A DNA stretch of 35,186 nt from a virus (lineage: Duplodnaviria; Caudoviricetes). The position numbers were made by a program, and so were the translations under genes. This document shows positions 4,198-22,788 of this stretch, piece after piece. Numbering within the stretch: position 1 is the first letter of the stretch; the number at the start of each line of letters is the position of its first letter. The DNA is taken from positions 1 to 35,186 of IMG/VR virus record IMGVR_UViG_3300044724_001982. One strand, given 5' to 3'. The notes under the pieces were generated by a model. The model saw only the letters and a list, made by a program, of their open reading frames with translations, had not been told where the DNA came from and searched no databases.

Positions 4198-4938
4198 TTA
4201 TTTTTTATTTCTTCTAGTTATATCCCTATAGCCACCAGTAAATTTAGATCTAAGCCTAAAGCTCTCGTTATTAATAGTCTTATGATCATCTTCACTAAAA
4301 GTTGTAACATCTAACCCTATTTTTTCTCTTTTAAAAGGAATTGCATGTAAGAAAGGCATTCCTCTTTTTAAAAGAATATCACCCTCTGAGTGCCATATAC
4401 TTGGAAAGTTAACTTGATGAAAGCTGTCAGTTTCAACAATACCTGGTAACACAGTAAAGTTATCATTTTTGTGGAGTAGTGGTGGAATAAATAGTGTACT
4501 CCAACCAGGTGGTGTAAAAAAGAACCAAGGACTTGTAAATTTAACAGCTCGTTTATAATCTTTTTCATCAAAAGGATAAGTAGGAAGTTGTTCAAAGTCA
4601 TGAAACTCTATATGACTACTGTTTGTATTTATAGAATTAGATTCAAAATGAAAACTATCACCATGTCTTTGTACTAATAAGTCATACCACATTGGGATAA
4701 TGTATCCTTGTGTAAAGTAATCAACTACAGCAGGGCATTTTTTAACTGTATGAGAATTGTAATCCTTAAGCATATCACCCATCTTAGGAAAGGGTTGTGC
4801 ATGTAGCACTGCTAGATCTAAGTTTAACTTTTGAAACCATTCAGGTATCATCTGACTAGCTGGTACTGGTGGTGCTATCTCTACTAACGGCTCGTCTATT
4901 GTAGCAAATCGCATTGTTTTAGTTTTCACCCATTTCAT
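4198..4938 (-). CDS. DUF6065-like protein (paralogue 1)
   Basis: PPVPA..IPEWF, TVKKCPAV, GYIIPMW, PW...TPPGWS, LPGIVETDSFHQVNFP, G.PF...IPFKRE, shared with 6243-7061 and 21812-22570. Family name recalled from motifs, not searched. Confidence 0.65.
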   Translation of the reverse strand: MKWVKTKTMRFATIDEPLVEIAPPVPASQMIPEWFQKLNLDLAVLHAQPFPKMGDMLKDYNSHTVKKCPAVVDYFTQGYIIPMWYDLLVQRHGDSFHFESNSINTNSSHIEFHDFEQLPTYPFDEKDYKRAVKFTSPWFFFTPPGWSTLFIPPLLHKNDNFTVLPGIVETDSFHQVNFPSIWHSEGDILLKRGMPFLHAIPFKREKIGLDVTTFSEDDHKTINNESFRLRSKFTGGYRDITRRNKK

Positions 4939-5441
4939 AACTTTTTCTCAAAAAACCAATGATCTGGTTCTGCAAAATGCAGAAATAACATGCCTACTCT
5001 ATTCCAACTTGGAACTGGAAAATCTTCTCGCCAGTGATCTTGTTCCTCACCATAAAAAGCTAGTGCCTCATTTTCTTCTAAATTATATTCTTGATCTTCT
5101 ACTATTAACGGCCATTGTACATTTTGATACAAACACACATCAAGAGTATAAGTACATGCGTTTGTGTCTTTGTGTTTGTGTAATTTAGCATCTTCACCCT
5201 CATAGTGAACAATAAGACCATAAGTAAATTTTAAAGTATCAGATCCAAATATTTCTTTAGCTTTATCTAATACTTCATCTGCATAATTTTTTATACTTGA
5301 ATTTTGTTCACTTGATTCTTCAAACCTACCAAATCCTTCAAAGTATTCAAAGTTCTTATAATTATTGTTTAGATAAGATTTTAAATGATTGAAAGATTGA
5401 TGGTTTAATAGATCCTTAACAAGTTTTACTTCTTTAGCCAT
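4935..5441 (-). CDS. 2OG-Fe(II) oxygenase
   Basis: LHKHKD (HxD), later HWRE and LFLHF; typical small phage oxygenase. Confidence 0.8.
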   Translation of the reverse strand: MAKEVKLVKDLLNHQSFNHLKSYLNNNYKNFEYFEGFGRFEESSEQNSSIKNYADEVLDKAKEIFGSDTLKFTYGLIVHYEGEDAKLHKHKDTNACTYTLDVCLYQNVQWPLIVEDQEYNLEENEALAFYGEEQDHWREDFPVPSWNRVGMLFLHFAEPDHWFFEKKL

Positions 5442-6250
5442 TTTTTCCTCGGCAGTAGTTTTTTAGGTCTTCTAGCTAAAGCGTCAGGATATAAAGTATT
5501 AGTTTCTCTTCTATTTACTGCTGATCCAACGATCATATTCCATCTTTCACTAAATGTTTCATTCCAGTCAACCCATTCAACTTTTACAGGCTTAGAGAAA
5601 AGTATATTAAACATTACTGTGTCATGATTCAACTCTAGTGTATCTTGTTTTGGATCAGTCCACTCAAATGCCCAAGATAAACCCCTAGACCAAGAATATA
5701 TAGGCATAAACCCACCAATCAGAGATATAGGTAAATTCTTTCCTGAGTTTCTATCACTAGGTACAATATCTAGCCACACTTCTGGATCATCTGTAAAAAA
5801 CATAAAAGGCATAGTTATTTGCATAACAGGTTGCTCTGGGTTAGCCCATGCTTCCTTTTCTTCCATAATAATGTCTCTAAAAGGTCCATGATGTTTTACT
5901 GCACCATGATAATTAGCTTGCATAGAATAACCACCAAAGCGATCTACTTCATCAGCAAATTGATTTTGTGTTAAAGATACTTTTACATGACTGTAGGGAA
6001 AATACATTTCATACAATCTATTTCTTAAAAACTGTGTTGAGACACAGCCATTTGGTGCTTTTACAAACTTTCTAGGCGCACCATAATTGATAATAGGTAT
6101 ACTGCTTTCCTCTTCGTGTTCCTTACCTACTGTATTTGCTAATGGTTTTGGTATAGTGAAAGCTACTCTTGGTAAGTTTCTGTTAGTCTCTCTTATTGGC
6201 TGACTCCATAAAGATCCGATGTCAGGTATTTTTATTGGACACTTACTCAT
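5426..6250 (-). CDS. Divergent DUF6065-like protein
   Basis: GCVS...LYEMYFPY, MPFMFFTD, LIGGFMPIYSWSR.LSWAFEW, MFNILF follow the same layout (Cys motif, beta core, basic C-terminal helix) as neighbours, but similarity is weak. Confidence 0.45.
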   Translation of the reverse strand: MSKCPIKIPDIGSLWSQPIRETNRNLPRVAFTIPKPLANTVGKEHEEESSIPIINYGAPRKFVKAPNGCVSTQFLRNRLYEMYFPYSHVKVSLTQNQFADEVDRFGGYSMQANYHGAVKHHGPFRDIIMEEKEAWANPEQPVMQITMPFMFFTDDPEVWLDIVPSDRNSGKNLPISLIGGFMPIYSWSRGLSWAFEWTDPKQDTLELNHDTVMFNILFSKPVKVEWVDWNETFSERWNMIVGSAVNRRETNTLYPDALARRPKKLLPRKKWLKK

Positions 6251-7061
6251 CTAATATTCCTTCCTTAGTCCATTGTTTTTTATTCTTTTGTGTGAGCCAA
6301 CGATACCACCCATTTTGCCTAGTTCTTTCGGCAGCCCTACTTTTATCATAATACTCTTTGTCTTGATCATCCATTTCTGCGACTTCTAATTTGTTTAAAG
6401 TTTCTCTTTTGAATGGGATTATTTGTATTAGTGGCATACCTTGTCTAAATGTTCTTTCACCCTGACCATGATATAAAAATGGAATATTCATTTGATGATA
6501 AGAGTCTGTTTCAACAATACTAGGAAATATTTCTATGTCTATATTTCTGTGATACCACGGATCCATAACCATTATTGACCAACCAGGTGGAGTAATTATA
6601 TCCCAGGGGTTCTCAAACTTTAAAGCTGTATGAAAGCTGTGATCGTGTAACGGCATTTTACCTATAGATCTTGCATCGTGAAATGATATTGTATTTTCAA
6701 ATGCGTGCTTGTTATACCAATTCAAACCAGAATCTCTATCATGTGATATTTTAAGATCTAACCAAAGTGGTATGATGTAGCCCTCGTGCATAATATCTTT
6801 TACTGTAGGACATTTTTTTAAACTATTATCTTTGTAAGGTACAGTATTCCAACTTTCGTCATGACCTTCACCATGATTTCCGTCTCTCATCTCAGACCAC
6901 TCACGCTTTAGGTTCTTATACCAAGCAGGTATAAATTCTTTAGCTGGTCTAGGTGGTGCAAGATCTATATATTCTGATTTTTGTGTTAGAAATTTTATAG
7001 TATCAAATTCTACTTTGTGTTGTTTAGTTTCTAAAAATCTGTTGTACTTTTTCCCCATCAC
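6243..7061 (-). CDS. DUF6065-like protein (paralogue 2)
   Basis: PPRPAKEFIPAWY, SLKKCPTV, GYIIPLW, NPWDIITPPGWS, PSIVETDSYHQMNIP, GMPLIQIIPFKRE. Confidence 0.65.
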   Translation of the reverse strand: MMGKKYNRFLETKQHKVEFDTIKFLTQKSEYIDLAPPRPAKEFIPAWYKNLKREWSEMRDGNHGEGHDESWNTVPYKDNSLKKCPTVKDIMHEGYIIPLWLDLKISHDRDSGLNWYNKHAFENTISFHDARSIGKMPLHDHSFHTALKFENPWDIITPPGWSIMVMDPWYHRNIDIEIFPSIVETDSYHQMNIPFLYHGQGERTFRQGMPLIQIIPFKRETLNKLEVAEMDDQDKEYYDKSRAAERTRQNGWYRWLTQKNKKQWTKEGILDE

Positions 7062-7068
7062 TTACCTT

Positions 7069-7776
7069 TCATTCCAACAATAATGTTGCTGTCATCACAG
7101 CTCTTAAGTTTTCTTCATTTTCGTCAACATCAACAGTATTAAATGATATTGTGTCACCAGTTTCCCAGTGAATTATCTTAATAGATGTAAAATTGTCTCT
7201 TAAATACTGTATTGCAGTGTTAATGCTACTAATTTGATCAGGTTTCCATTCAATGACAACTTTTATACCAGAATTATCACCTATTAGTGTTTCAGCGCCT
7301 TTTAGGACATCTACTTCTTTACCATTAGCACTTACGACTAGAAGATCACAATTTGCTAAAAGTAAGCTATCAATAGTTATAATATCTGTTTCTTGTGTGC
7401 TGTCACCGAAGATCATATCTAAAATGCCACCAGATTTATTATCATCGAAAAAATACATAGTGCCTGTACCATTTGTGTCAGAGCAGGCTTTTTCTATATT
7501 TGTTTCGTCAGAAAAGTTTTGATCTAGTATTGCAAAACGATCTGCATTAGGTTCAATGTTTGTAGTGCTTACGCCAGCAGACTCTAATATCCCTGTAGCT
7601 ACACCACAACCAGCACCTACAATACAAGCATCTGTAAAATCGCTTGCATTATCTACTAAGTAAAACTCTAATGACGGATTAATGTGATCTAGATCGCCCA
7701 CTTTACCATATTCAGATTTATCATTTTCATCTATATTTATAGTGATACCATTTCTAAATGTTTGTGATTGTGTCAT
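7069..7776 (-). CDS. FkbM-like SAM-dependent methyltransferase (degenerate motifs)
   Basis: IVGAGCG, IEPN, ACSDTNGTGTMY, ITIDS, ANGKEVDVLKGA, VVIEW follow the FkbM layout. Confidence 0.7.
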   Translation of the reverse strand: MTQSQTFRNGITINIDENDKSEYGKVGDLDHINPSLEFYLVDNASDFTDACIVGAGCGVATGILESAGVSTTNIEPNADRFAILDQNFSDETNIEKACSDTNGTGTMYFFDDNKSGGILDMIFGDSTQETDIITIDSLLLANCDLLVVSANGKEVDVLKGAETLIGDNSGIKVVIEWKPDQISSINTAIQYLRDNFTSIKIIHWETGDTISFNTVDVDENEENLRAVMTATLLLE

Positions 7777-7788
7777 AGCTACATCTTA

Positions 7789-8481
7789 CTACATTAAATC
7801 TATTTTTACATTTTGTGGTAAATACATAGGCGGCAACCCATCAAAATCAATAGTGTGTCCTAACCATGTAACAATTGCATACTTACTGCCTTTTATGACA
7901 GGCATTGCTTTGTGTGAGTAAGCCCAATTACTTGGAAACAGTACTAAAGCTGGTTTATCTGGTTTTACCATTTCATCAAAGTGTGTAAAGTATGTACCAC
8001 CACCCTCGTAATCACTAGGATTTAAAAGTATTAAAGCTGATAGATGACGAGGATTATGTGGTGCATAGTCACAGTGAGCTTTATACTCTTGACCACCTTG
8101 ATACCTCAACAATGTATACCCCTCATCAAAATGTATACTTATTTCATACTTTTCACAGTAATTGTTTACATACTCTAATAATTTATTAGAAAGCAGTTCA
8201 TTAATATTTTTAAGATTTTTTATGTAGTCTTCTTTATTATTTTTAACAGCTTCCCTTATGATCCTTGCTTCGCCTGGTTCATTTGCATATTTGCTTATGG
8301 GAAACAATTGATTAGTTCTTATGTTTCCACCTTTATGACCTTTACCAATACCAGCATTTTCAAAACCAAGTTTAAAGTCTTTATCTTGATCTATTTCCTC
8401 AATAGCATCTATAATCTTTTGTGCTTGATCTTGCGACAAAAAGTCTTCATAAACTTCCACACAACCCATCGATAGTTTCAT
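7789..8481 (-). CDS. Prolyl-4-hydroxylase-like 2OG-Fe(II) oxygenase
   Basis: LLRYQGGQEYKAHCD, RHLSALILLN, YEGGGTYF, LFPSNWAYSH, GSKYAIVTW. Confidence 0.92.
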   Translation of the reverse strand: MKLSMGCVEVYEDFLSQDQAQKIIDAIEEIDQDKDFKLGFENAGIGKGHKGGNIRTNQLFPISKYANEPGEARIIREAVKNNKEDYIKNLKNINELLSNKLLEYVNNYCEKYEISIHFDEGYTLLRYQGGQEYKAHCDYAPHNPRHLSALILLNPSDYEGGGTYFTHFDEMVKPDKPALVLFPSNWAYSHKAMPVIKGSKYAIVTWLGHTIDFDGLPPMYLPQNVKIDLM

Positions 8482-9194
8482 ATAATCTGTCTCCTTGTTA
8501 GTTCTTCAGGTGGTACACCATCTAAAAATGAATCTAAATCAAAACCACTAGAACAGGCTACAAGAAAAGCTGACTTTCTGCCATTTAATAAAGGAGTTGT
8601 TGCATGTGAGTAAACAAAAGCACTCGGCATAATGACTAAACTACCTGCTGGTGGTTTATAAGGATCGTGTTCAAAGTACTCAAAATCTAAAGCGCCACCT
8701 TGATGTTTGTCAGTCAAATAAGTTAAAGCTGTAATTCTTCTTAAAAATGGTGCGTTCCAGAACCTTCCTGTTGCAGGATTTCTGGTTGATCTATTATCGC
8801 CATGATAATTCATATACTTAGGTGGTTTATAAGTAATATACTGATATTGTTCCATCCAATGTATTTCATCTTTTACCATTGGGTATATTTCTTTATAATT
8901 ATTTATTTTATCTAAAGTGTTTCTTTGCACTTGCCAAAAGTATTCTTTACTCGCTTTTTCTTTAAACTCTATTTCAGGATCGAATCTTATAGGGCCATTT
9001 TCATTTTTGACTGTTTGATAATTACCACCTCTGTCGTATTCATTATTATCAATGACTTTTTGTTTCCACAGATCAACTTCTGCATTCATAGTCTCGACAA
9101 CACCTTCAGGTACTTCTATACAATTCTCGTAAGCTATAACACCTTCAACTATTTTTTTAGGTTCTACTTCTTTCCATAATTTACTTAGAACCAT
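8478..9194 (-). CDS. Prolyl-4-hydroxylase-like 2OG-Fe(II) oxygenase
   Basis: YMNYHGD, RRITALTYL, QGGALDF, GSLVIMPSAFVYSH, GRKSAF. Confidence 0.88.
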   Translation of the reverse strand: MVLSKLWKEVEPKKIVEGVIAYENCIEVPEGVVETMNAEVDLWKQKVIDNNEYDRGGNYQTVKNENGPIRFDPEIEFKEKASKEYFWQVQRNTLDKINNYKEIYPMVKDEIHWMEQYQYITYKPPKYMNYHGDNRSTRNPATGRFWNAPFLRRITALTYLTDKHQGGALDFEYFEHDPYKPPAGSLVIMPSAFVYSHATTPLLNGRKSAFLVACSSGFDLDSFLDGVPPEELTRRQII

Positions 9195-9661
9195 TACTCT
9201 TCCTCTTGATTTTCAAAAACAGCAAGTTCTTTGACATCAAACATTTCACCATTTTTCATAAATATAAGTAAATACCACCCTGTATTTAATCTGACATGCT
9301 CGGTTTCATATAATTGAAATTTCTTATTGTAACCTAATATGTGTGTGTCTACCTTTTCCTTTTCAGATTTAGGGTTATCATAATCCCTACTCCATACTTC
9401 CATTGTGTAGCTTGGATCATCTTCAAACTCACCATAGTCATCTACAAGTCTGTAAATTAAATACTCTGTATCAGAACAAGTTTCTGGTGTATGTGTTAAT
9501 TGAAATTCAGGGATCCTAAATGGATGTGCTTTATCAGGAGTTAAAACATATTTTTTATTATTAGTAGATAGACCTGTATGTATTTCTTGAAATTTACCCT
9601 GCCACTGATCTTTATAATCGTTTATATCGTGACCTTCAGGTATAAAGAATACCTCTCTCAT
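9194..9661 (-). CDS. Hypothetical protein
   Basis: GGAGG RBS; TAATG overlap with the next gene; beta-rich C-terminus (LNTGWYLLIF). Confidence 0.75.
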   Translation of the reverse strand: MREVFFIPEGHDINDYKDQWQGKFQEIHTGLSTNNKKYVLTPDKAHPFRIPEFQLTHTPETCSDTEYLIYRLVDDYGEFEDDPSYTMEVWSRDYDNPKSEKEKVDTHILGYNKKFQLYETEHVRLNTGWYLLIFMKNGEMFDVKELAVFENQEEE

Positions 9662-9680
9662 TTTACCTCCCCAAAATGAT

Positions 9681-10577
9681 CTAGACTAGATTTGGTCTTG
9701 TTTCTAGCAACTCTTTTAAGTAATCTATTGTGTTTTCTAAAACATCACTTTTACTAGCTTTATAAGTATCGAAGTCAGCGAGGAAATCAGCTTCGTCAAA
9801 ATCTGCTGGAACTTCGCCTAATTTATAAAGACAGTTAGCAATAGCTTTGTCAACCATTTGTAATGCGTCAGCTTTTTCAGCTGATAAAGCATCTGCGTCA
9901 ATTGATAATTGCATATCTTCTCCTATAGTGTAAGTCTTACCACACAAGTTTAACATAAGTATGGTCATGATTGTGTCCATATTTTCGTTCTTTAATATTT
10001 GATTAAGAACACTTTGTGGTATTTCTAGTGTAGTAGAATTTTCATAAGTATTGAATATTTTGTAGTGTGTCCACCACCAACCTTCGCCCTCTTCCCCATG
10101 TTCTCTACCATCTTCGTGTAAAATATCATCTGTATCTATATAACTATCATCACCACTTAAAGTGATTGCCATTGGTGATATTGCTTGAAAAAAACTATCT
10201 TTATATAGGTATGGTTTATTTTCTTTCACATAAACATCTTCATATAAGTTTTCTTGTATAGAGTATATAAATCCAGTCATCCAGAATATTGACTCAGGAG
10301 TATATGTTGCATTTTCGTCTAAGTCATATAAAAAGTCTTTACGCCTAATATAGAAATCACAATTTTTTGCACCATTTAGATCTATATCTACATATCCATA
10401 ATTACCAGAAACAGTAAAATCTTTTTTTACTCTAGGTGCTTCATTGTATAGATTTTGATAAGTATGATCAGGATCTAGTAAATCAGGGTTTCCCATGTGT
10501 CGACCAGGCATATACCAAAGATTATAGTTATCATAATCTTGATCTTCTCTACTGTAATAAATGCGAACAGTAGACAT
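9681..10577 (-). CDS. Hypothetical protein with CBM41/pullulanase-N-like N-terminal domain and acidic helical C-terminal domain
   Basis: VRIYYSREDQDYDNYNLWY...DFTVSGNYGYVDIDL...DFYIRRKD...DVYVKEN resembles the CBM41 consensus; domain call is tentative. Confidence 0.55.
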   Translation of the reverse strand: MSTVRIYYSREDQDYDNYNLWYMPGRHMGNPDLLDPDHTYQNLYNEAPRVKKDFTVSGNYGYVDIDLNGAKNCDFYIRRKDFLYDLDENATYTPESIFWMTGFIYSIQENLYEDVYVKENKPYLYKDSFFQAISPMAITLSGDDSYIDTDDILHEDGREHGEEGEGWWWTHYKIFNTYENSTTLEIPQSVLNQILKNENMDTIMTILMLNLCGKTYTIGEDMQLSIDADALSAEKADALQMVDKAIANCLYKLGEVPADFDEADFLADFDTYKASKSDVLENTIDYLKELLETRPNLV

Positions 10578-10579
10578 TG

Positions 10580-11239
10580 TTATACCTTAAATGTTTTTAC
10601 AGTACCACTTGCATAACCAGTTACATCCGTAAGAATACCTGTTAGTGGTAGATCTTGAGAAATAATAAATATAACGCCACCACCAGTTGTTGTCTCACCA
10701 CTAGCTTCTATTGTTCCATAGCCCTGCAATTTTCTTGCACATAGGACTACAATGCCACCACCATGATTGACATTATCGCCTGCACCACCTTGTAGAGCTG
10801 CTGGTGTTGTTTGGCCACCATGAACTATTACGCCCTCTATAGCAATGTCTGGGTGATTAAAATACTCTGCTCCAACAGTAGGTGCTGTAGCTGTATATCC
10901 ATTTCCATTACCACCAAGAGAGTTTGTTACGGCTGCGACTGCACCACCTCTAAGGGTTCCTGATGTTGAAACTCCACCGACTCTTCCAATTTTTGTATCA
11001 GATTGATTAGTTGATGTTGGTGCCATTCCTAAACTATTCCTTACAAAAACTCTATATCCTGCTGTATCTAACACAATACCTGGATCTATTGTTAAATTGT
11101 TATAGTGCATATCTCTAGTGAGAGTTGTATTAGATGAGATAGTAACATTTCCGTCCATACCTGATCCATAAATGCTATCAGGGATCACATCAAAAGTTTC
11201 AAAATCGCTTGGTACTTGACCTATTTCTGTAATTGCCAT
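10580..11239 (-). CDS. Gly-rich virion/adhesin-like protein (short paralogue)
   Basis: IYGSGMDGNVTISSNTTLTRDMHYNNLTI...LDTAGYRVFVR; GGGIVVL and GGGVIFI motifs; paralogue of 11248-12600. Confidence 0.7.
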   Translation of the reverse strand: MAITEIGQVPSDFETFDVIPDSIYGSGMDGNVTISSNTTLTRDMHYNNLTIDPGIVLDTAGYRVFVRNSLGMAPTSTNQSDTKIGRVGGVSTSGTLRGGAVAAVTNSLGGNGNGYTATAPTVGAEYFNHPDIAIEGVIVHGGQTTPAALQGGAGDNVNHGGGIVVLCARKLQGYGTIEASGETTTGGGVIFIISQDLPLTGILTDVTGYASGTVKTFKV

Positions 11240-11247
11240 AATTACTC

Positions 11248-12600
11248 CTAACTACTTGGATCTGTATCTGTCGCTGCAATATTAAATACAGTAACGACTG
11301 TTCCTGCTGTTGCAGAACCAGATCCACCTGTTCCAGCCGCAGCTGCTAATGTCAAACCTGACGGCAAAGGTTTAGTTCCTGTTACAAAAACTACTGCGCC
11401 ACCACCAGCATTATAAGATTGAGAAGCTGTACCCCCAGATCCACCAGCACCTCCTGGGTGATAGTTTGTTGGGTTGCTATCATTGTTTGTTGGATTATTG
11501 TTACCACCATATGAATAGCCATAAGAGTATCCGTATGAATACCCATAGCTATAACCATATGAATAGTTATTACCTGGATATGAGTAGTTATTACCAGGAT
11601 ATGAATAGTTACTACCAGGATAACTATGCGTATGTGCATAGTGATAATGATAAAAACCTGTTGCGTAGTTATTTATTGGTGGACTTGGATGCCAGTGATA
11701 ATGTGTGTGAGAACCATAATTTGTTGGGTTAGATCCGTAATTAGTACTATTACTACCTGAGTTTGAGGGGTTTGAGCCACTGTTAGATCCATAGTTTGCA
11801 CCATTGTTGGCACCATAGTTTGCACCATAGTTTGTTGGATTAGTATTACCAGGATAAGAATAGTTATTACCTGGTGTGGATGCGTCTGGGGCTGGTGCGC
11901 CATCTGCACCTTGTGTGGTACCAGTAGTATCATCTGCGTCTGCTCTAATTGTTCCATCTCCTGAAACAGCTTTAGCTACTACTAAAACTACTCCACCACC
12001 TACTGCACCTGTACCTGCTGATGCTGAGTTACCATCTGCGCCTTTTCCACCATCTGCACCTACAGTTTGATAATCAGCCCAACCAGTGTCTCCTCCGTCT
12101 GCACCACCAGTAGCGTCTGCTGTTATTGCACCATCGGATGCGCCTGATCCACCACCTAAAAATTTAAAAGTTTCAGTAGATTGATCAAACTTTTGCCCAG
12201 CTAAAGCTACTGACAAGTTAAAGAAATCGTTTTCACCATCAAAAAAAGTATTACCAGAGTGTTCTCCGTCTGTTTGTTCTGAAGATCTACCACCTAAAGT
12301 GTCTGTAGCATCTGTACCTTTATCAAAACCACCTTTAAGTGTTCCTGCTGTTGCTTTACTTGTAAATCTACCTATACGAGATGTAGCGTCTGCAAATGTC
12401 AATGTACCTCTTACAAAAACACGATACCCATTAGTATCTAATGTGACATTGGCGTTAATCGATAAATCGTTGTAATACATATCACGAGACAATGTCGTAT
12501 TTGAAGCAAGGGTAACATCACCATCTTGCCCATAACCATATATTTCATCGCCACCTAATCTGTCCAAAAAGATTGGCTCAGGTACTTGTATTTCAGGCAT
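11248..12600 (-). CDS. Gly-rich virion/adhesin-like protein with mirror-repeat His-tipped insertion
   Basis: Start at 12600 (MPEIQ, TAATG overlap) is preferred over 12654. IYGYGQDGDVTLASNTTLSRDMYYNDLSI...LDTNGYRVFVR; N/Y/G/S/P-rich insert. Confidence 0.75.
   Translation of the reverse strand: MPEIQVPEPIFLDRLGGDEIYGYGQDGDVTLASNTTLSRDMYYNDLSINANVTLDTNGYRVFVRGTLTFADATSRIGRFTSKATAGTLKGGFDKGTDATDTLGGRSSEQTDGEHSGNTFFDGENDFFNLSVALAGQKFDQSTETFKFLGGGSGASDGAITADATGGADGGDTGWADYQTVGADGGKGADGNSASAGTGAVGGGVVLVVAKAVSGDGTIRADADDTTGTTQGADGAPAPDASTPGNNYSYPGNTNPTNYGANYGANNGANYGSNSGSNPSNSGSNSTNYGSNPTNYGSHTHYHWHPSPPINNYATGFYHYHYAHTHSYPGSNYSYPGNNYSYPGNNYSYGYSYGYSYGYSYGYSYGGNNNPTNNDSNPTNYHPGGAGGSGGTASQSYNAGGGAVVFVTGTKPLPSGLTLAAAAGTGGSGSATAGTVVTVFNIAATDTDPSS
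11503..11832 (-). repeat. Coding tandem repeats with mirror symmetry
   Basis: NYGA NYGA NNGA NYGS NSGS NPSNSGS NSTNYGS NPTNYGS | 28-aa His-rich core | SYPGSNY SYPGNNY SYPGNNY SYGY x4 SYGG. Confidence 0.9.
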
Positions 12601-12929
12601 TAGCTTACCTCTACACCAGAAACTTGTATATTCACTGAAGTTGCTGCTGAACATTTTGCAGCAACAGAAGCATTAGCAGGTATAACCATAGCTAAGTCAA
12701 TAACTGTAGTTGTATTTGCTTGAACAGTTGTATCACCAAAAATGATATGTTGATCACCAGTTGTATCCCCTGTAGGAATAAGTTTGATCTCCACTGTTCT
12801 GTCTGTTGCTGTATAGTTAGCTAACATAATTTGCTTAATAATACACTTGTTAGAATTACTGAAAATTTCTGCTTCAGATGTTCCAAGTGCAGTTACTTCG
12901 GCTAACTCAGCTGCGTTATATACTGCCAT
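12600..12929 (-). CDS. Small beta-sandwich virion structural protein
   Basis: IIKQIMLAN...VQANTT...SVNIQVSGVEVS, a pattern common in phage tail modules; AGGAG RBS. Confidence 0.65.
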   Translation of the reverse strand: MAVYNAAELAEVTALGTSEAEIFSNSNKCIIKQIMLANYTATDRTVEIKLIPTGDTTGDQHIIFGDTTVQANTTTVIDLAMVIPANASVAAKCSAATSVNIQVSGVEVS

Positions 12930-12937
12930 TTATTCTC

Positions 12938-13393
12938 CTATAATCCCATCCAGAGCAACGATTCGTTTGTGAATAGTTGTACTGGATTTACTTTTACCAT
13001 TGATGTAGATGAATTATCATATAGCATGACTAGATCATTATCTTCGTCTACATCTATTGATGTTCCATCTGTAAGTCTTGTTGCGTCTATTAAGATCGAT
13101 ACTGCCCCACTTGTTGCACCACCAGATATTCCTGAAGTGGCACTTGTTGTAACACCTGTCACATCACCAATATCTAATTGCAACCAAGCGCTTGAAGTTC
13201 TTACTTCTAGTCGATCATCGTCAGTATTGTATATAACCATACCTTCGGTTGCAGATGTAATTGCGTCTCTCTGTGATTCTGTGTACGCAGGTACTAATGG
13301 ACCGCCATCAGCATGACCATCTTGAAATTCTGCTAGACCTGATGAGTCAGATCCAGTCATTTTTACTCTTAGTAATTGTTGTCTATCAGCCAT
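12938..13393 (-). CDS. Short tail fibre-related protein
   Basis: TESQRDAITSATEGMVIYNT, GDVTGV..GISGGATSGAV, DLVMLYDNS fibre motifs; N-terminus resembles that of the 2183-aa fibre. Confidence 0.65.
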   Translation of the reverse strand: MADRQQLLRVKMTGSDSSGLAEFQDGHADGGPLVPAYTESQRDAITSATEGMVIYNTDDDRLEVRTSSAWLQLDIGDVTGVTTSATSGISGGATSGAVSILIDATRLTDGTSIDVDEDNDLVMLYDNSSTSMVKVNPVQLFTNESLLWMGL

Positions 13394-13518: not shown

Positions 13519-13817
13519 TATTCACCTGGTTTCGGATTACCTGTTCTAACTTGATTATATTTCTCAACATAAGCATCCCACTTAGTTGAATCTCCACCTA
13601 TTTCTTTTTCTGTATAGGCTTCTATAAATTCTAATATTGATGGATATTCTTCACCTCTAGCATTAATTACAGCTAGCTCTAATTTCTTAGCATCAATTTC
13701 TTCAATGGTAGGTTGTGTAATATCTGGTGAATGCCACTCAATAACGCCATCTCTTATTGTATATTCAGCGTTAGGTGTTAATTCACTTATTGCTTGTGAT
13801 GTTAATCTTTGACTCAT
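13518..13817 (-). CDS. XkdW-like / tail fibre assembly protein
   Basis: AISELTPNAEY..IEWHS...QPTIEEI...R.EEYPSI...PKP; directly follows the fibre gene. Confidence 0.65.
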   Translation of the reverse strand: MSQRLTSQAISELTPNAEYTIRDGVIEWHSPDITQPTIEEIDAKKLELAVINARGEEYPSILEFIEAYTEKEIGGDSTKWDAYVEKYNQVRTGNPKPGE

Positions 13818-16800
13818 TATGCTCCTACCTCTATTGCAGTAATTGTAGGCGACTGACCTCCACCTTCTTCTCCGTAAGTCAGATCACCACTACCTCTTTG
13901 CGCTCTTATTGAAAATGTAATTTGTGAAGTGCTAGATGGACTATCTAAAGTATGCAAAGCCCAAGCGTGATTTTCACTTGTGCCAGAGGCTTGATAAATT
14001 ATATGATTTCCAATAGCTGTTGAATCTCTATAAAATTTAACTCTATTCCAAGCAGTTCCACCACCAGAGTTACCATCACCTGTTGCAAATAATAATATTT
14101 TACTTGTTGTAGCAGCAGGTGTTATATCAACACTTACTAAAGAAGTATAGGTTGTGCTGTTTACAGTCACAGCAGAAGTTCCTGTAGTCGATACAACTTG
14201 TAATATCTTTCCACCACCACTTGCTGCACCCCAACTAATATTTCCTGATCCATCTGTTTTTAATACTTCGTCAGCACTACCTGCTGCACCTGCTATTTCT
14301 AATTTAGCTGATGCTATATCTAACACACCTGTAGCGTCAATAGTAACTCTTTCGCTACCTGCTGTGTGCATTTCTATTTCATCATTATCAGAATTAGAAC
14401 TTTCTACTCTAATAAATGTATCTGTATCGCCATCTCTAAATGTTGTGGCAGAGTTTGAAGTTCCTGTGATGTTTATTGGATCAACAGTTCCATCTGCTAA
14501 TACAAGATCAAGATCTGTTGCTGATGTTCCAACATTTGCAAATTGTATAGGATCCGAGGAATTGTCTGCAAGTGTAAGAGGCATTTCATCATTTACATCG
14601 AAACTAACACTTCCTACTAAATTGCTTTTTGTGATCTTCTTATAATCAGTAGCACTTGTGTCATAAATTAAGATAACATCGTCATCTGCTGCTGTAGTTA
14701 AAGCTGATTGACCTGTCAAAGCACTTGTGGTTAAACCTGTTGCATTACCTTCAAATGTACCTGCAACGAAAGTTTCGGATCCAACTGTCCATTTGTCTGT
14801 TGATTCGTTCCATATAAGAGTTTTATTAGTGTCATCGCCCCTCTCAATTTCAATACCACCATTCTCTGAAGCAGAGCCAGTTGCATTGGAATTAAGAACG
14901 ATCTGATTATCAGCTAAGTTAATTGTCTCAGTATTAACGGAAGTTGTAGTCCCTGAAACTGTCAAGTCTCCAGATACTATTAAATCATTAAAAGTTACAT
15001 CGGAAGTTGTTGAGACAGCTTGACCTATACTGATATCACCTGATGAAACAGTAACACCTGTACCACCACTTACATAGCTATCTATCTTTGTTTGGACTCT
15101 TGCATCTGTGTAATATAAATTTGATGAACCCTCACTTAGATTATCTGTATCTTTAGTCGCAAGTCTTGTGTCAAATGCACTGTTAGATCTAGCGTCTGTA
15201 TAGTAAAGATTTGTTGATCCCTCTCCAATATCATCAGTATCAAGAGTTACATTTACCCATGCAGATCCACTGTATCGTAATACTTGATTAGTAGCCAGAG
15301 AAGTTAATGTTACATCTGTTAACTGAGCTACTTGTGAACTTGCGTCACCAGGTTCCCATGTAGAACCAGACCATTTAAGAGCTTGACCTGAACTAGGTGC
15401 GCTTGTTGTTGTATCAACATCACTAAGATCATCTATGGATACAGATCCAAAATCTATATCTATTTCATCATTTGCAGTGTCATTAGTTACAGTAATCTTG
15501 GAAGATCCTGCATTGATACCTCTAAACTCTAGATCTTCACCTGTCTTTTGTAGGAATACACCAATACCTGCTGTGTTCTGATTAGATGCTGTGTTAACTT
15601 CACCAGATCCAGATAAACCACCAAGAGATGAAAGAACAAAACCACCTGAGCTATTACTGTAAGATACAACTTTTGCGTCATCGCTTGATGTTGGATCGCT
15701 GAATAATACATCACTAAGATCATTTAGATCTGCCGCAGTAATCCTTGCGTCTGCTCTAGCATTTGTAAAGTACAGATTAGTGCTACCTTCTGTTAGGTCA
15801 TCAGTAGTTGCTGCTGCTATCCTTGCATCAGCTCTTGCATTTGTGAAATATAAGTTTGTTCCTTCAGATAGATCACTAGTACTGAATCCTGATAAAGATA
15901 CAGTTGCGTCAATAGCACCATCGTTTGCGTCATCATAAGCAAAAGATATACCTGTATGTGATCCATTTGTGACAATCTGTGCGCCTGTTATATCTTGAAC
16001 TTGTTCAGAACTTAAAGCGGCAGTATTAGCAATTGTTAATGTTCCTGCTGAGTCATCATAAGTGACGGATATATCTGTACCAGCAGTTACAACTCCTGCT
16101 ACATAATCTTCTACTTGTTCTTGTGTAAGTTGTGTATTTGTATCTGTAGAGGTAATTGTTAATGTATTAGCAGTGTCATCATAAGTAAGTGATACATTAG
16201 TTCCCTCTGTAAGTAAAGCATTTACCCTGTCATCTACTCTTTCATCAGTAAAGTAAAGATTTGAAGATCCTTCTGACAAACTATCAGTATCATGATTAGC
16301 TATTGAGGAAACTGTTCCTGTTACATCACCTGTTAAGTTTCCTGTAAATGTTGAGTATATACTTCCTGCATCGAATCTTTCTGATCCAACAGTCCATTTG
16401 TCATCAGTTTCATTCCAGATAAGAGTTTTATTAGTAGAACTACCACGCTCTATTTCAATACCTGCATTTTCTGTAGGTGAACCTGTGACATTGTTATTTA
16501 ATACAATTATGTTGTCATCAACTGTTAATGTTTCAGTATTTAAAGTTGTAGTAGTACCACTTACAGTTAAATCTCCTGATACAACTAGATCATTAAAAGT
16601 TACATCACTTGTAGTGCCTACAGCCTGACCTATGCTTATTTCTCCAGATGATAAAGTAACACCTGTTCCTGCGCTGAAGTGCGCTCTTGTCTCGCTAGCG
16701 CTAGGACCTGTATATGTAAATACGCCAGATCCACTGTTGTAAGATAATGATCCATCACCACCACTATCAGTTACCGAAACTGCACCTCTAGCCCTTGCGT

Positions 16801-19800
16801 CTGTGTAGTAAAGGTTAGAGCTGCCTTCGGTCAAATCGTCTGTATCACTAGCAGATAAACTAGATCCAGCTATTGATACAACTGCATCTCCACCCATACC
16901 AGAGTGAGCTGAACAGTAATAATATAGAGTGTCTGATGTTGCAGCGTTTATAGTAATTTGTAAATATGCACCAGAAGATCCTTGAGATCCATTCGTAGTT
17001 ACACCAGTAGTATATGATGATCCACTGTTATGAGAACCATCCTTTGTTGTAGATAGTAAGAATGGATGTGAACCTGTAGATGAATCTGATAAATCGAATC
17101 TATAAGTTATACCTGGTACTAATTGTACACTTGCAGCCTCTTCACCATCTAGATAATATTTATTACCAGATCCAGAGTTTGAAACTGTAACAGCAAATTC
17201 GACTATTGCAGTATTGTTTTCAAAATTAATTGTTTTGTTTGTAAGTGTATCAGTACTGGTTGGTGTAAAATCTGCTGTAAGTGATCCTGAGGAATAAGTA
17301 AGCCCTGATCCTATTTCATTTGCTCCAATTAAATCTACCCAGTTTCCTGCATGTGCATAATAAGCTCTACCAGTTCCATGAACATGAGCAAACATACCAT
17401 GATAAGTTGAAGCACTTGGTAGATCACCTTCTGCTGAATACACATTGCCAAAAAGGACTCTTCTACCACCCATATCAAGATCTGAAGTATTATCAAATGC
17501 AATTGTTCCTGAACTAAAGCTGATATTTGTACCACCACTAAAGCTGGCCAAAGTTGTAAATGCAGAAGTTGAATTATCATAATTAGATAAGTCATTGTCT
17601 ACTACAAAATCATAATTATTATTAGTGTCATCATAGGTAACAGTTATGAGAGTTTGAGTTCCCATAGTTAAAGCTGTGCCTAATGCGTCTTGAGCTCTTT
17701 CGTTTGTAAAATAAAGATTTGTAGAACCTTCAGACAAATCATCTGTATCATTGTTTGATAGATCATCTTCTGTTGCCGAAATAGTAAGTGTTCCTGCACT
17801 ATCGTCATATGACAAAGTTATATTTGATCCTGCTGTTAATAAACTATCAACTTGATCGTCAACTCTTTCATTAGTGAAATAAAGATTTGTACCTTCGGCT
17901 AAGTCGCTTGTTGTTTTACCTGACAAAGCACTGTCGAATCTTGCTGTGGTGTAATAGAGATTAGTTCCCTCAGACAAATCACCTGTATCTGCTGCTGCCA
18001 ACTTTGTATCAAAATCTGTATTAGCTCTTGTAGTTGTGTAGTAAAGATTTGAGCTACCCTCACTAAGACTATCTGTATCATGATTAGATATATCTGAAAC
18101 TGTTCCTGTAACATCGCCTTGTAAATTAGCGATTAATGTTCCAGTTGAAAAACCAGTAGCACTTGTATCGACTGATGTAGTAGGCTCTGTTTGTGAACCA
18201 TGAAATAATCTAAATTTATCAGACTGACTAGCATCCCAAACCATACCTGCATATTTTGTTGTCGATGACTGTATGTATTCGCCATACCAACCTATATCTA
18301 CTGTATTACCTGAGTTTTCATCTGCATACTTGAATAACGGATCATTTACAGTGACAGTTGTACTATCAACAGTTGTAGTCGAACCACTTACAGTCAAGTC
18401 TCCTGAAATAGTTGCATTACCATCAATACTTATGTTTGTAGATGTAATGTCATCAGATGTTAAAGTGCCATCAACTTGTATATTATTAAATTGTACATTA
18501 TCAGTAGTGCCAACAGACTGACCTATTGATATCTCACCAGAGGATATTCCTATACCAGTTCCAGCAGTGAAATGCGCTCTAACTTCCGATGCTGATGGAC
18601 CTGTGTAAGTAAACACTCCTGTTGTGTTATCGTAACTTAGCGATCCATCCCCACCAGCATCAGTAACCGATAAAGAACCTCTGGCTCTAGCGTTTGTAAA
18701 GTATAAGTTAGTAGATCCCTCTGACAAATCATCGGTATCTTTAGTTCCTAATCTTGTATCAAATCTTGCTGTTGTGTAGTAGAGGTTTGTACCCTCTGTT
18801 AAATCAGATGTAGATTTACCTGTAAAAGCTGTATCAAATCTAGCAGTTGTGTAATAAAGATTAGTTCCCTCTGTTAGATCAGCTGTGTCCTTAGTTGCCA
18901 ATCTTGTATCAAATCTTGTGTCAGTATAATATAGATTAGTTGAACCTTCCCCAATGTCATCTGTATCTAGTGTGACATTTAACCAAGCTGAACCACTGTA
19001 TCTTAATACCTGATTTGCAGCTAAAGATGTCAGCGTGACATCATTCATTTCGCTGATTTCGTTTTCTGTAGCTACAGCACTATCTACATAAGTTTGAGTT
19101 GCATAACTGTTAGAAGTTAAATATGTTCCAACTCGTGTATCTGTATAGTAAAGATTAGTAGATCCCTCTGATAGATCGTCAGTATCTTTTGTAGCTAGTC
19201 GAGTATCAAAAGCACTATTAGATCTTGCATCCGTATAGTAGAGGTTTGAAGATCCTTCTGTTAAATCATCGGTATCAAATGACGACATTGTAACTGCGAC
19301 AGTAGGGGTTTGTGACTCTCCACTAGTCGTGCTGACACTTATACCTGTACCAGCAACTAAATTTTGTACGAAATCGCCAACTGTATCTGTAGCTAGATCT
19401 ATTGGATCATTAATCCATGAGGATCCATTATATCTAATTACATCACCATTTGCTAGACCAGAAAATCCTACATTTGCAAGATCTTCAATATTGGCTAAAG
19501 CTATTCTTGCATCTGCACGAGCATTGGTATAGTAAACATTGGTGCTTCCCTCAGTAATACTATCTGTATCAAATTCGGTAAAATCCACGGATCCTGTAAC
19601 TGTTCCTGATCCTTCAGTTAAAGTAAGACCTGTACCACCAGTAAATGTTATTGTTCCACCTAACGAGATATCCGTTGAGTTAGATCCGTCTGTGACTGTT
19701 ATAGAACTATTACTAAATGCAGTGTTAGGAATATTAGTAAGAGTGTTAGATCCACCATCAATTGATTTGTTAGTTATAGTATCAGTTGAGGTTTGTGTCA

Positions 19801-20368
19801 AAATCTCGTCATAAGATTGATTTTCACCCAAAACCCAACGATTTGTCGATACATCATAAAATAATCTTGCGTCATCGGTATCTGATGTTTCAATAATTAA
19901 TCCAGCATCAACTTCGCTATTTCCTGTATTCAGTTTTACAAAAGCGTCATCAACAACTATTACTTCTGCCGTAGTATTAAGAAATTCACCTTGAACATCA
20001 AGGTTGCCTTGTATAGTTACAGAACCACTGGTTGTTAATCCTGTAAATGTTGGACTGTCACCTGTTCCTAAACCTAAACTTGTTCTTGCTGTTGCACCTG
20101 ACTCTGAAACCCATTGACTTCCATCTGATACAATAAATACGCCATCTGAATGAGTTATATTTGCTAATGTTGATAAATCTGCGTCATAGGCTTGGACATT
20201 AGAGCCAATTTGTAAACCTAAACCTATTCTTAAATCTGCTAGTGAACTATAAGATCCACCAGTTCCACCATCGGTTAAACCTATAAAATCTGCTGATTGA
20301 AATTCAGCAAAACCATCAGGATTACCATCTCCGTCTAAATTCAGCCTTATCGGATCTTTTTCTGCCAT
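13817..20368 (-). CDS. Giant tail fibre / virion structural protein (2183 aa) with EG(S)TNLY(Y/F)T repeats and a cupredoxin-like domain
   Basis: About 17 copies of DDLxEG(S)xNLY(Y/F)TxxR, repeated GDLTVSGTTT...GIEIERG modules, HPF...YYYCSAHSGMGG, C-terminal GKILQVV...ITAIEVGA domain. Confidence 0.85.
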   Translation of the reverse strand: MAEKDPIRLNLDGDGNPDGFAEFQSADFIGLTDGGTGGSYSSLADLRIGLGLQIGSNVQAYDADLSTLANITHSDGVFIVSDGSQWVSESGATARTSLGLGTGDSPTFTGLTTSGSVTIQGNLDVQGEFLNTTAEVIVVDDAFVKLNTGNSEVDAGLIIETSDTDDARLFYDVSTNRWVLGENQSYDEILTQTSTDTITNKSIDGGSNTLTNIPNTAFSNSSITVTDGSNSTDISLGGTITFTGGTGLTLTEGSGTVTGSVDFTEFDTDSITEGSTNVYYTNARADARIALANIEDLANVGFSGLANGDVIRYNGSSWINDPIDLATDTVGDFVQNLVAGTGISVSTTSGESQTPTVAVTMSSFDTDDLTEGSSNLYYTDARSNSAFDTRLATKDTDDLSEGSTNLYYTDTRVGTYLTSNSYATQTYVDSAVATENEISEMNDVTLTSLAANQVLRYSGSAWLNVTLDTDDIGEGSTNLYYTDTRFDTRLATKDTADLTEGTNLYYTTARFDTAFTGKSTSDLTEGTNLYYTTARFDTRLGTKDTDDLSEGSTNLYFTNARARGSLSVTDAGGDGSLSYDNTTGVFTYTGPSASEVRAHFTAGTGIGISSGEISIGQSVGTTDNVQFNNIQVDGTLTSDDITSTNISIDGNATISGDLTVSGSTTTVDSTTVTVNDPLFKYADENSGNTVDIGWYGEYIQSSTTKYAGMVWDASQSDKFRLFHGSQTEPTTSVDTSATGFSTGTLIANLQGDVTGTVSDISNHDTDSLSEGSSNLYYTTTRANTDFDTKLAAADTGDLSEGTNLYYTTARFDSALSGKTTSDLAEGTNLYFTNERVDDQVDSLLTAGSNITLSYDDSAGTLTISATEDDLSNNDTDDLSEGSTNLYFTNERAQDALGTALTMGTQTLITVTYDDTNNNYDFVVDNDLSNYDNSTSAFTTLASFSGGTNISFSSGTIAFDNTSDLDMGGRRVLFGNVYSAEGDLPSASTYHGMFAHVHGTGRAYYAHAGNWVDLIGANEIGSGLTYSSGSLTADFTPTSTDTLTNKTINFENNTAIVEFAVTVSNSGSGNKYYLDGEEAASVQLVPGITYRFDLSDSSTGSHPFLLSTTKDGSHNSGSSYTTGVTTNGSQGSSGAYLQITINAATSDTLYYYCSAHSGMGGDAVVSIAGSSLSASDTDDLTEGSSNLYYTDARARGAVSVTDSGGDGSLSYNSGSGVFTYTGPSASETRAHFSAGTGVTLSSGEISIGQAVGTTSDVTFNDLVVSGDLTVSGTTTTLNTETLTVDDNIIVLNNNVTGSPTENAGIEIERGSSTNKTLIWNETDDKWTVGSERFDAGSIYSTFTGNLTGDVTGTVSSIANHDTDSLSEGSSNLYFTDERVDDRVNALLTEGTNVSLTYDDTANTLTITSTDTNTQLTQEQVEDYVAGVVTAGTDISVTYDDSAGTLTIANTAALSSEQVQDITGAQIVTNGSHTGISFAYDDANDGAIDATVSLSGFSTSDLSEGTNLYFTNARADARIAAATTDDLTEGSTNLYFTNARADARITAADLNDLSDVLFSDPTSSDDAKVVSYSNSSGGFVLSSLGGLSGSGEVNTASNQNTAGIGVFLQKTGEDLEFRGINAGSSKITVTNDTANDEIDIDFGSVSIDDLSDVDTTTSAPSSGQALKWSGSTWEPGDASSQVAQLTDVTLTSLATNQVLRYSGSAWVNVTLDTDDIGEGSTNLYYTDARSNSAFDTRLATKDTDNLSEGSSNLYYTDARVQTKIDSYVSGGTGVTVSSGDISIGQAVSTTSDVTFNDLIVSGDLTVSGTTTSVNTETINLADNQIVLNSNATGSASENGGIEIERGDDTNKTLIWNESTDKWTVGSETFVAGTFEGNATGLTTSALTGQSALTTAADDDVILIYDTSATDYKKITKSNLVGSVSFDVNDEMPLTLADNSSDPIQFANVGTSATDLDLVLADGTVDPINITGTSNSATTFRDGDTDTFIRVESSNSDNDEIEMHTAGSERVTIDATGVLDIASAKLEIAGAAGSADEVLKTDGSGNISWGAASGGGKILQVVSTTGTSAVTVNSTTYTSLVSVDITPAATTSKILLFATGDGNSGGGTAWNRVKFYRDSTAIGNHIIYQASGTSENHAWALHTLDSPSSTSQITFSIRAQRGSGDLTYGEEGGGQSPTITAIEVGA

Positions 20369-21811: not shown

Positions 21812-22570
21812 TTACTTGATATTTTTTTGTCTTTGGGTAATTGATCTGTAAGCATTTTTAAACTTACTGTTTAAATCATTTTTATGCCCAGTATCTTGAC
21901 TTTTTTGCTTTTCAGACATTTGTCCAACATCAAAGTCATAATCATCTCTTTTAAATGGAATGACTTGAATAAATGGCGTACCTCTATCTATTATTAGATC
22001 TTTATTTGTATGCACTATGCTTGGAAAGTTTATATGATGATATGTATCTGTTTCTACGATACCAGGTAGAACAGTAAATCTTTTTTCAAATTCATAAAAT
22101 GGTGCTATAAATAAAACTGAATAACCTGGTGGTGTGTATATACGCCACGGATTAACAAACTTAACACCCTCAGGAAAATCTGTTTTTTTAAGTTTCCAGT
22201 GACTTATTTGTTCTTTGCTGTGAAATTCAATACCATACGGAAAATTTTTATTATCCCACTCAAGAAGTGCATCATTTCTCTGAATTAAAAAATCGCACCA
22301 CATAGGGATTACAAAGCCCTCAGTTATTAAGTCTATTATTGCAGGACATCTTTTTACAGTTCCACCACTGTGTTTTTTAGCAGTTTCTTTTGTTTTACCA
22401 AAAGCATTCGGAAGTCCAGATGGATTTGGTTGTCTTATAATGTAATCATCCATATCTTTAAACCAACTTGGTATAAAGGAATTAGATTTTTTTACAGGTG
22501 AAATAGATTCAAGACCTACGACATCGGTCTTAAACTCTATGAATTGTTTTCCCCCCAAAGAAAACTTCAA
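21812..22570 (-). CDS. DUF6065-like protein (paralogue 3)
   Basis: FIPSWF, TVKRCPAI, GFVIPMW, NPWRIYTPPGYS, LPGIVETDTYHHINFP, GTPFIQVIPFKRD. Confidence 0.65.
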   Translation of the reverse strand: MKFSLGGKQFIEFKTDVVGLESISPVKKSNSFIPSWFKDMDDYIIRQPNPSGLPNAFGKTKETAKKHSGGTVKRCPAIIDLITEGFVIPMWCDFLIQRNDALLEWDNKNFPYGIEFHSKEQISHWKLKKTDFPEGVKFVNPWRIYTPPGYSVLFIAPFYEFEKRFTVLPGIVETDTYHHINFPSIVHTNKDLIIDRGTPFIQVIPFKRDDYDFDVGQMSEKQKSQDTGHKNDLNSKFKNAYRSITQRQKNIK

Positions 22571-22788
22571 TCGAAGTTTCCTCCTAGATCTTCATATTCA
22601 CCAATAAGTGCAGTCAATTGAGATTCAATAGCCTCAATTTCATCTGTCTCTTCTTCACTTGGTGATTCAATTGCATCTAAAACTAAGTGATGTTTTTCTA
22701 GTGCATGAATTTGTATATAAAGTTTGTCCAACTTTTCTTCTGTGCTTTCGGTCACTGTTGGATCAACTATTTTATATTCGTGTGTCAT
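22567..22788 (-). CDS. Small acidic helical protein (YExLGG family)
   Basis: TAATG coupling to the tail-tip gene; ends EYEDLGGNFD. Confidence 0.65.
   Translation of the reverse strand: MTHEYKIVDPTVTESTEEKLDKLYIQIHALEKHHLVLDAIESPSEEETDEIEAIESQLTALIGEYEDLGGNFD

Follow-up and report, generated by a model that had tools for sequence, protein, structure and literature searches.

How can a phage protein carry an insert whose two halves differ in sequence and nevertheless match in length and unit order, and does such a chain fold back on itself? The question is raised by a gene for an adhesin-like protein of 450 aa in the window analysed here, a 35,186-nt (35-kb) piece of an uncultured marine tailed phage in which all long genes lie on the minus strand. 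Features of the gene and its surroundings are collected in Table 1. The start ATG at 12600 overlaps the stop of the upstream gene (TAATG), and the frame also opens 18 codons earlier, at 12654. The protein was assigned no family in Pfam or PHROG searches and had no match in cultured phage records or GTDB genomes; sequence searches of the PDB returned antibody linkers and chance matches only, none below E 0.3. Searching the ESM Atlas with the whole protein gave three viral clusters, with no family assigned.

Table 1. Positions in the window of the insert gene, its parts and the neighbouring genes discussed in the text.
Feature	Positions	Strand	Remarks
Insert gene (adhesin-like tail-region protein, 450 aa)	11248..12600	-	relatives align from its Met
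Base, N-terminal part (residues 1-239)	11884..12600	-	predicted beta-helix rungs; glycine-rich loop ~149-203; glycine-rich lead-in to insert
Outbound arm (residues 240-297, 58 aa)	11710..11883	-	mostly A-type units (NPTNYGS, NYGA/NYGS); one B-type core near base
Tip (residues 298-325)	11626..11709	-	HxHxHxH, variable loop around conserved NN, HxHxxHxH
Return arm (residues 326-380, 55 aa)	11461..11625	-	B-type units (YSYPGNN, YSYG); A-like units near base
Base, C-terminal part (residues 381-450)	11248..11460	-	glycine-rich return segment and last predicted beta-helix strands
Insert-less base paralogue (219 aa)	10580..11239	-	directly downstream in 32/32 loci; BLASTP E 8e-24, 50% over 92 aa
Downstream block	4198..10577	-	two unknown proteins, two Pfam 2OG-Fe(II) oxygenases, FkbM methyltransferase, DUF6065-like proteins
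Two small upstream genes (109 and 151 aa)	12600..13393	-	accompany insert gene in 32/32 loci
151-aa protein (one of these two)	12938-13393	-	G-x-A-E-F-Q motif near N-terminus
Fibre-like protein (2183 aa)	13817-20368	-	G-x-A-E-F-Q motif near N-terminus
Third DUF6065-like gene	21812-22570		behind tail-tip gene
Tail-tip protein (1371 aa)	22788-26903	-	C-terminal S74 chaperone domain

The original prediction had described a mirror-symmetric stretch at 11503-11832. Read on the minus strand, these positions encode exactly the 110 aa described: 20+21 aa outbound, a 28-aa tip with 8 His, and 21+20 aa back. Unit sizes and counts were likewise as given, with two adjustments to the sequences: the outbound units are degenerate (NYGA, NYGA, NNGA, NYGS and NSGS, then NPSNSGS, NSTNYGS and NPTNYGS), and the last 4-mer of the return arm is SYGG where SYGY had been assigned. 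The matched arms also extend past these coordinates, as far as the base on both sides (Table 1). Further out, where partners had been said to swap sides, a YSY core of the outbound arm does face DSN on the return arm. An assembly artefact was ruled out by three overlapping contigs of run X10 that tile 11200-12076 with zero differing letters and by two loci (L001 and L035) encoding an insert identical to that of the window. Contigs X15 and X18 from RNA libraries contain identical pieces of the insert, which is not proof of transcription.

Arm lengths were compared across relatives in two sets. The first comprised 32 viral loci (of 34 found) and 59 proteins (the window's own, 57 close matches and P0077); 8 incomplete members were dropped and the remaining 83 gave 65 distinct inserts. 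Outbound minus return length was exactly +3 in 61 of the 65, the value of the offset being set by the choice of anchors. A second search yielded 80 metagenome loci, 10 without a complete insert and one (L074) without the tip, and added 32 new inserts: 28 at +3, 2 more after correction of a replaced anchor His, and 2 unbalanced. Pooled, 91 of 97 distinct inserts were balanced at one fixed offset, with outbound arms of 43-70 aa in 17 lengths and matched-arm inserts of 99-164 residues. Shuffling of arms gave 8.1 balanced inserts expected of 97, with a maximum of 20 (10,000 shuffles). Because relatives are not independent, the set was reduced to one row per rung architecture, after which 52 of 58 were balanced, against 4.4 expected and a maximum of 13 (20,000 shuffles). 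The two arms thus co-vary in length in homologues, as the original prediction had anticipated.

Homologues with unbalanced arms, which would have spoken against that prediction, make up the other 6 of the 97. They lie 4 to 48 residues away from the usual offset; 5 of them resemble losses or gains on one arm when set against a close relative that is balanced, and in the sixth, P0047, both arms differ. In L077, the only unbalanced insert traced to a repeat, 12 nt are missing inside a 34-nt exact repeat. In L074, 297 nt are missing between 17-nt repeats and the tip is gone. These may be assembly collapses or real transient alleles.

Facing residues were then assigned with the arms read antiparallel, starting at the outer His. 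Of the 545 YSY cores, 479 have G-x-N at the mirror position and 540 have x-x-N; a second YSY is never found there. Counted per architecture, G-x-N faces YSY in 271 of 310 cases (87%), compared with 16% when arms of other relatives were used and 22% when the arms came from relatives with the same tip type and orientation. The NTH core, like YSY, faces G-x-N, and PGN faces PTN-like linkers most often; the code put forward originally (NPTNYGS with SYPGNNY, NYGA with SYGY) was seen in relatives. The usual spacing between rungs is 4 or 7 residues, with 6 or 9 in some cases. Either unit type can lie on either arm, and the types swap sides between relatives: among 52 distinct rung architectures, B cores lie on both arms in 27, on the outbound arm only in 22, on the return arm only in 2 and on neither in 1. 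On a quick tree of the base the orientation classes are interleaved. Mutual information was 0.52 at the His-to-His register (null 0.04) but peaked at shifts of -1 and -3, so the exact register is not fixed. The inserts of two relatives, P0040 and L081, are built from other units (YYGG and NPSGG, without YSY) and still have the same arm balance and 8-His tip.

The tip contains 8 His in 97 of 97 inserts (H298, 300, 302, 304, 318, 320, 323 and 325 in the numbering of the 450-aa protein), placed at mirror positions within a length of 27-36 aa. It occurs in two mirror forms, with 7+8 residues in 70 inserts and 8+7 in 27, and 56 different tip loops were counted around the fixed His. The arms, by comparison, are rich in Tyr, Asn, Gly and Ser (24% Asn, 15% Gly, 11% Pro) and hold 0.8% His.

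At the DNA level, six short inverted pairs (13-22 nt, 73-86%) were found. A DNA palindrome was rejected as the cause of the symmetry, none of the six joining mirror positions. Across 24 loci, neighbouring 7-mers share codons above background (61% vs 47-49%), which would fit tandem duplication, and neighbouring 4-mers share codons at background (49% vs 45-53%); selection for scrambled repeat codons was not found in these loci. Since the arm DNA is not an inverted repeat and the codon sharing of the 7-mers fits tandem duplication, the symmetry is maintained at the level of the protein.

The whole protein was modelled with AlphaFold2 at a mean pLDDT of 57.8, the confident parts lying in the base. 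Values below 50 were obtained for residues 1-23 and for both arms (247-299 and 318-375), to which no strands were assigned, and the insert modelled alone reached 32.6. Short strands were placed at 240-242 and 379-381 and, with low confidence, in the tip at 298-305 and 315-323. In this model the short strands at the base and those in the tip fit an out-and-back path, and the arms between them have no confident structure. The base model (residues ~25-441) aligns to beta-helices, for example bactofilin 6ria (Z 8.0, rmsd 1.9, 81 residues aligned), Z 8 being a level common among unrelated folds. Only beta-helices were among the best 50 matches listed by VIA-align, and the absence of gp37 and gp38 from those 50 does not amount to their exclusion. 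Foldseek returned nothing in the PDB at E <= 0.001, and two viral models that are collagen-like but poor in rmsd.

The insert and a neighbouring loop are bordered by four glycine-rich segments (residues 149-239 and 381-401). These segments could be parsed in 84 of 88 relatives; the other four have short flanks, and their first loop is probably mis-anchored. Their lengths are 30/21/14/16 aa in the 38 near relatives, 42/36/29/30 aa in the 18 distant relatives and 36/30/23/24 aa in a single intermediate. This is a second length matching, in which all four co-lengthen by ~12-15 residues between near and distant relatives (P0060-P0092). It suggests that the four segments of a single chain form a polyglycine-II pedestal, a structure for which DSSP gives no PPII label and with respect to which the fold search was dominated by beta-helices.

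The same base carries other inserts in a wider family. From 33 distant matches, 27 (P0060-P0090) were parsed; these have Arg-rich tips with 0-1 His and matched arms of 74-109 aa, so the stalk does not need His. Their arm offsets range from -1 to +5 in 12 (Spearman 0.96) and from -1 to +2 in 7, and are constant in two groups of 4. The full profile search gave 2044 representatives at E <= 0.001. In 34 longer representatives that were inspected, His-rich inserts are common: many had His-packed inserts at the same base site and one was Cys-rich. NP and PGN motifs recur in several of them, on opposite halves. Extreme forms at this site (P0128-P0263) hold up to ~55 His, with a His-rich stretch of >800 residues in P0219; P0136 is the Cys-rich one. 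The start of the base was located in 24 remote proteins, and in 2 of them a Gly-X-Y run stands just upstream of it, which suggests display in threes. A further variant, found in 28 long forms of 510-550 aa (P0023-P0053), bears an inserted domain of ~105 aa that may be cupredoxin-like in fold and that also occurs in the 2183-aa fibre at residues ~1045-1167 (31-42% identity in 5 tested; a YYYC..H motif that some retain and others have lost). Fusion of the upstream 109-aa gene was rejected as the source of these long forms, their additional sequence being the domain found in the fibre.

In the window, the gene order on the minus strand is tail completion protein, tail tube, tape measure, tail-tip protein with S74 chaperone domain, the 2183-aa fibre-like protein, small genes and the insert gene, followed by a block of oxygenases, methyltransferase, DUF6065-like proteins and ferredoxin. 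Both oxygenases and FkbM are linked to the insert gene in 30 of 32 loci, the two misses being loci that end early downstream; the ferredoxin score of 0 in 32 loci reflects flank length only. The enzymes of this block (oxygenases, FkbM, DUF6065-like) possibly modify the Pro/Asn/Tyr/His-rich fibre. The 109- and 151-aa proteins encoded upstream are possible attachment partners, and the motif common to the 151-aa protein and the 2183-aa fibre (Table 1) is possibly a shared docking end. If this phage has a trimeric metal-bound spike, the more conventional candidate is the 1371-aa tail-tip protein, with 37 His and 8 HxH motifs. Sequencing runs containing the window were marine or estuarine wherever the habitat was stated. 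WhiB, a protein linked to Actinobacteria, is present in 3 of 5 related virus records, including the one that encodes the identical protein, and the host is therefore probably actinobacterial.

Because its halves match in length and unit order in nearly all relatives, the insert likely folds back like an RNA stem. We regard a fold-back stalk with a residue pairing code as highly probable, since readings that lack it leave at least one of single-residue matching, partner exclusion and side swaps unaccounted for. The two arms of one chain would pair antiparallel, with Tyr packing across Gly or Asn; Tyr packs across Gly in beta-strands. Rungs, mostly of 4 or 7 residues, can be gained, lost or switched to the opposite arm, which would make the length of the stalk adjustable, with ~14-23 nm as the upper limit for full extension at 3.3 A per residue. 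Repeat slippage would alter one arm, and a chain would persist only if its other arm had undergone a matching change. Metal, which the 8-His tip probably binds, would hold the His strands of the tip together, and the stalk would raise this tip and its variable loop toward the host cell, where the loop probably binds the surface. The position of the gene behind tail and fibre genes, the variety of tip loops around fixed His and analogy with known fibres all point to an adhesin role on the virion.

How the chains are arranged is a narrower question. The arrangement we favour, with moderate confidence, is a single-chain antiparallel fold-back stalk on a predicted beta-helix/glycine-rich pedestal, with a metal-clamped His tip and a host-binding variable loop. 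Pairing within one chain is argued for by the co-lengthening of the four glycine-rich segments and by a base site that takes His-free, His-packed and Cys-rich inserts alike, although a lone two-stranded ribbon of such length is unusual. The fuller form of the proposal, a protein stem-loop with a true two-letter code, flippable Tyr/Gly/Asn rungs and a single-chain tunable needle bearing an 8-His metal cluster or swappable tips, is offered tentatively and with slightly less confidence than doubt. A needle of the T4 gp37 type, with three chains interwoven into six strands and 24 His binding about four octahedral metal ions (iron), would leave the fold-back and the pairing code unchanged and place the contacts partly between chains; we think it rather unlikely. 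HxH motifs and an out-and-back chain are hallmarks of gp37 in passages of PMC9603124 and PMC6957217. Moreover, 8 His in each of three chains would make the 24 of four six-His sites, odd registers would give the 4-mer region one all-small and one Tyr-rich face, as suits a narrow barrel, and the collagen-type runs before the base in two remote proteins agree with three chains. These points are outweighed, in our view, by a dense block in which four His face four, at about twice the density of a continuous HxH stack by our estimate, by the absence of gp37 homology (hhalign probability 0.1% against gp37 811-1026; no Pfam collar domain), by matched arms in relatives with 0-1 His, and by the very different inserts accepted at one base site.

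Other pairing geometries, namely a face-to-face hairpin dimer with four-His sites, a chain swap or a polyproline-II/turn zipper, are improbable. Covariation does not separate pairing within a chain from pairing between identical chains, the 16 His of a dimer would fill four tetrahedral sites, and the Asn, Gly and Pro content of the arms is poor for the regular beta-sheet that AlphaFold2 also does not assign them; but the data hold no direct sign of a dimer, and two-fold fibres are rare on phage tails. It would likewise be possible to regard the inserts as disordered or amyloid-like linkers, or as substrates of the oxygenases, whose symmetry came from a DNA process or from shared ancestry. Composition, low pLDDT and the linked oxygenases are all in keeping with this; it leaves unexplained why 52 of 58 architectures match to the single residue, why YSY never faces YSY and why sides are swapped, and the arm DNA holds no mirror inverted repeat, so that we give it very little credence. 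Modification by the oxygenases is in any case compatible with a folded stalk.

If the pairing in the fold-back stalk is physical, it would constitute a natural and simple code by which a thin protein rod can be given a chosen length, and a clean system for the study of compensatory indel evolution. The insert would then be a candidate receptor-binding and metal-binding part of marine phages that are widespread and probably have actinobacterial hosts, and would bear on the idea that some of the bound iron in the ocean is carried by phages. Should the protein stem-loop proposal be true, it would add a new fibre architecture within a large aquatic phage adhesin family and a sequence-readable pairing rule usable for design.

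Several known systems share features with the locus. In Syn9-type phages, arrays of 2OG-Fe(II) dioxygenases with a dUTPase-fold protein are described in a passage of PMC2938197, where secondary-metabolite synthesis is proposed for these cyanophage arrays. A tandem oxygenase/accessory block is found here as well, directly downstream of the insert gene; unlike those arrays it is tightly linked to a fibre-like gene, and the likeness concerns the neighbourhood, not the insert. The HxH 'Ferrojan horse' tail fibres, e.g. of Alteromonas phage R22Y, whose HxH motifs are proposed to bind iron (in a passage of PMC11705849), resemble the present protein in belonging to marine phages, in lying in the tail region and in conserving HxH. 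As portrayed there they are gp37-like trimers with isolated HxH and a Gram-negative host, whereas here the His are dense (4+4) and the probable host is actinobacterial.

The gp38 adhesin of S16/T2/T6 is described, in portions of PMC12032242 and bioRxiv 10.1101/2023.11.25.568672, as a beta-helix with ten short PPII helices and short loops. As in gp38, N- and C-terminal segments are predicted to form a beta-helix here, by structure prediction only, and glycine-rich motifs accompany variable, presumably host-facing, segments between them. No homology to S16 gp38 was detectable (hhalign probability 0.7% and 0.2%; no PHROG match), and unlike gp38 the present protein has four glycine-rich segments of adjustable length that carry one long matched-arm insert.

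The closest likeness is to the needle (domains D10-D11) of the T4 long-tail-fibre protein gp37, in which, according to passages of PMC9603124 and PMC6957217 citing Bartual et al. 2010, the chain runs from base to tip and back with ~64 residues per arm over 20 nm. Both are insertions of similar length that run out to a variable tip and back and contain HxH motifs; here the out-and-back path with both ends at the base is indicated by covariation and not by structure. The resemblance drawn in the original prediction holds to that extent and does not reach homology. The gp37 stem is Thr/Ser/Gly and has no tandem units; seven staggered His pairs occur along its length, none mirroring another within 2-10 residues (ungapped estimate), and the base is a collar. 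In the phage insert, by contrast, HxH sites are not spaced along the stem or staggered between arms, all 8 conserved His lie in the tip, the stem consists of Tyr/Asn rungs that swap sides, and the base is a predicted beta-helix with glycine-rich segments. A description of matched-arm repeat phage fibres was not found in the literature covered, which left out most subscription journals. Fold-back needles are known from T4 gp37 as fixed sequences; in the present insert, as read from the sequences, the two arms show compensated insertions, fixed partners and side swaps, in the manner of an RNA stem.
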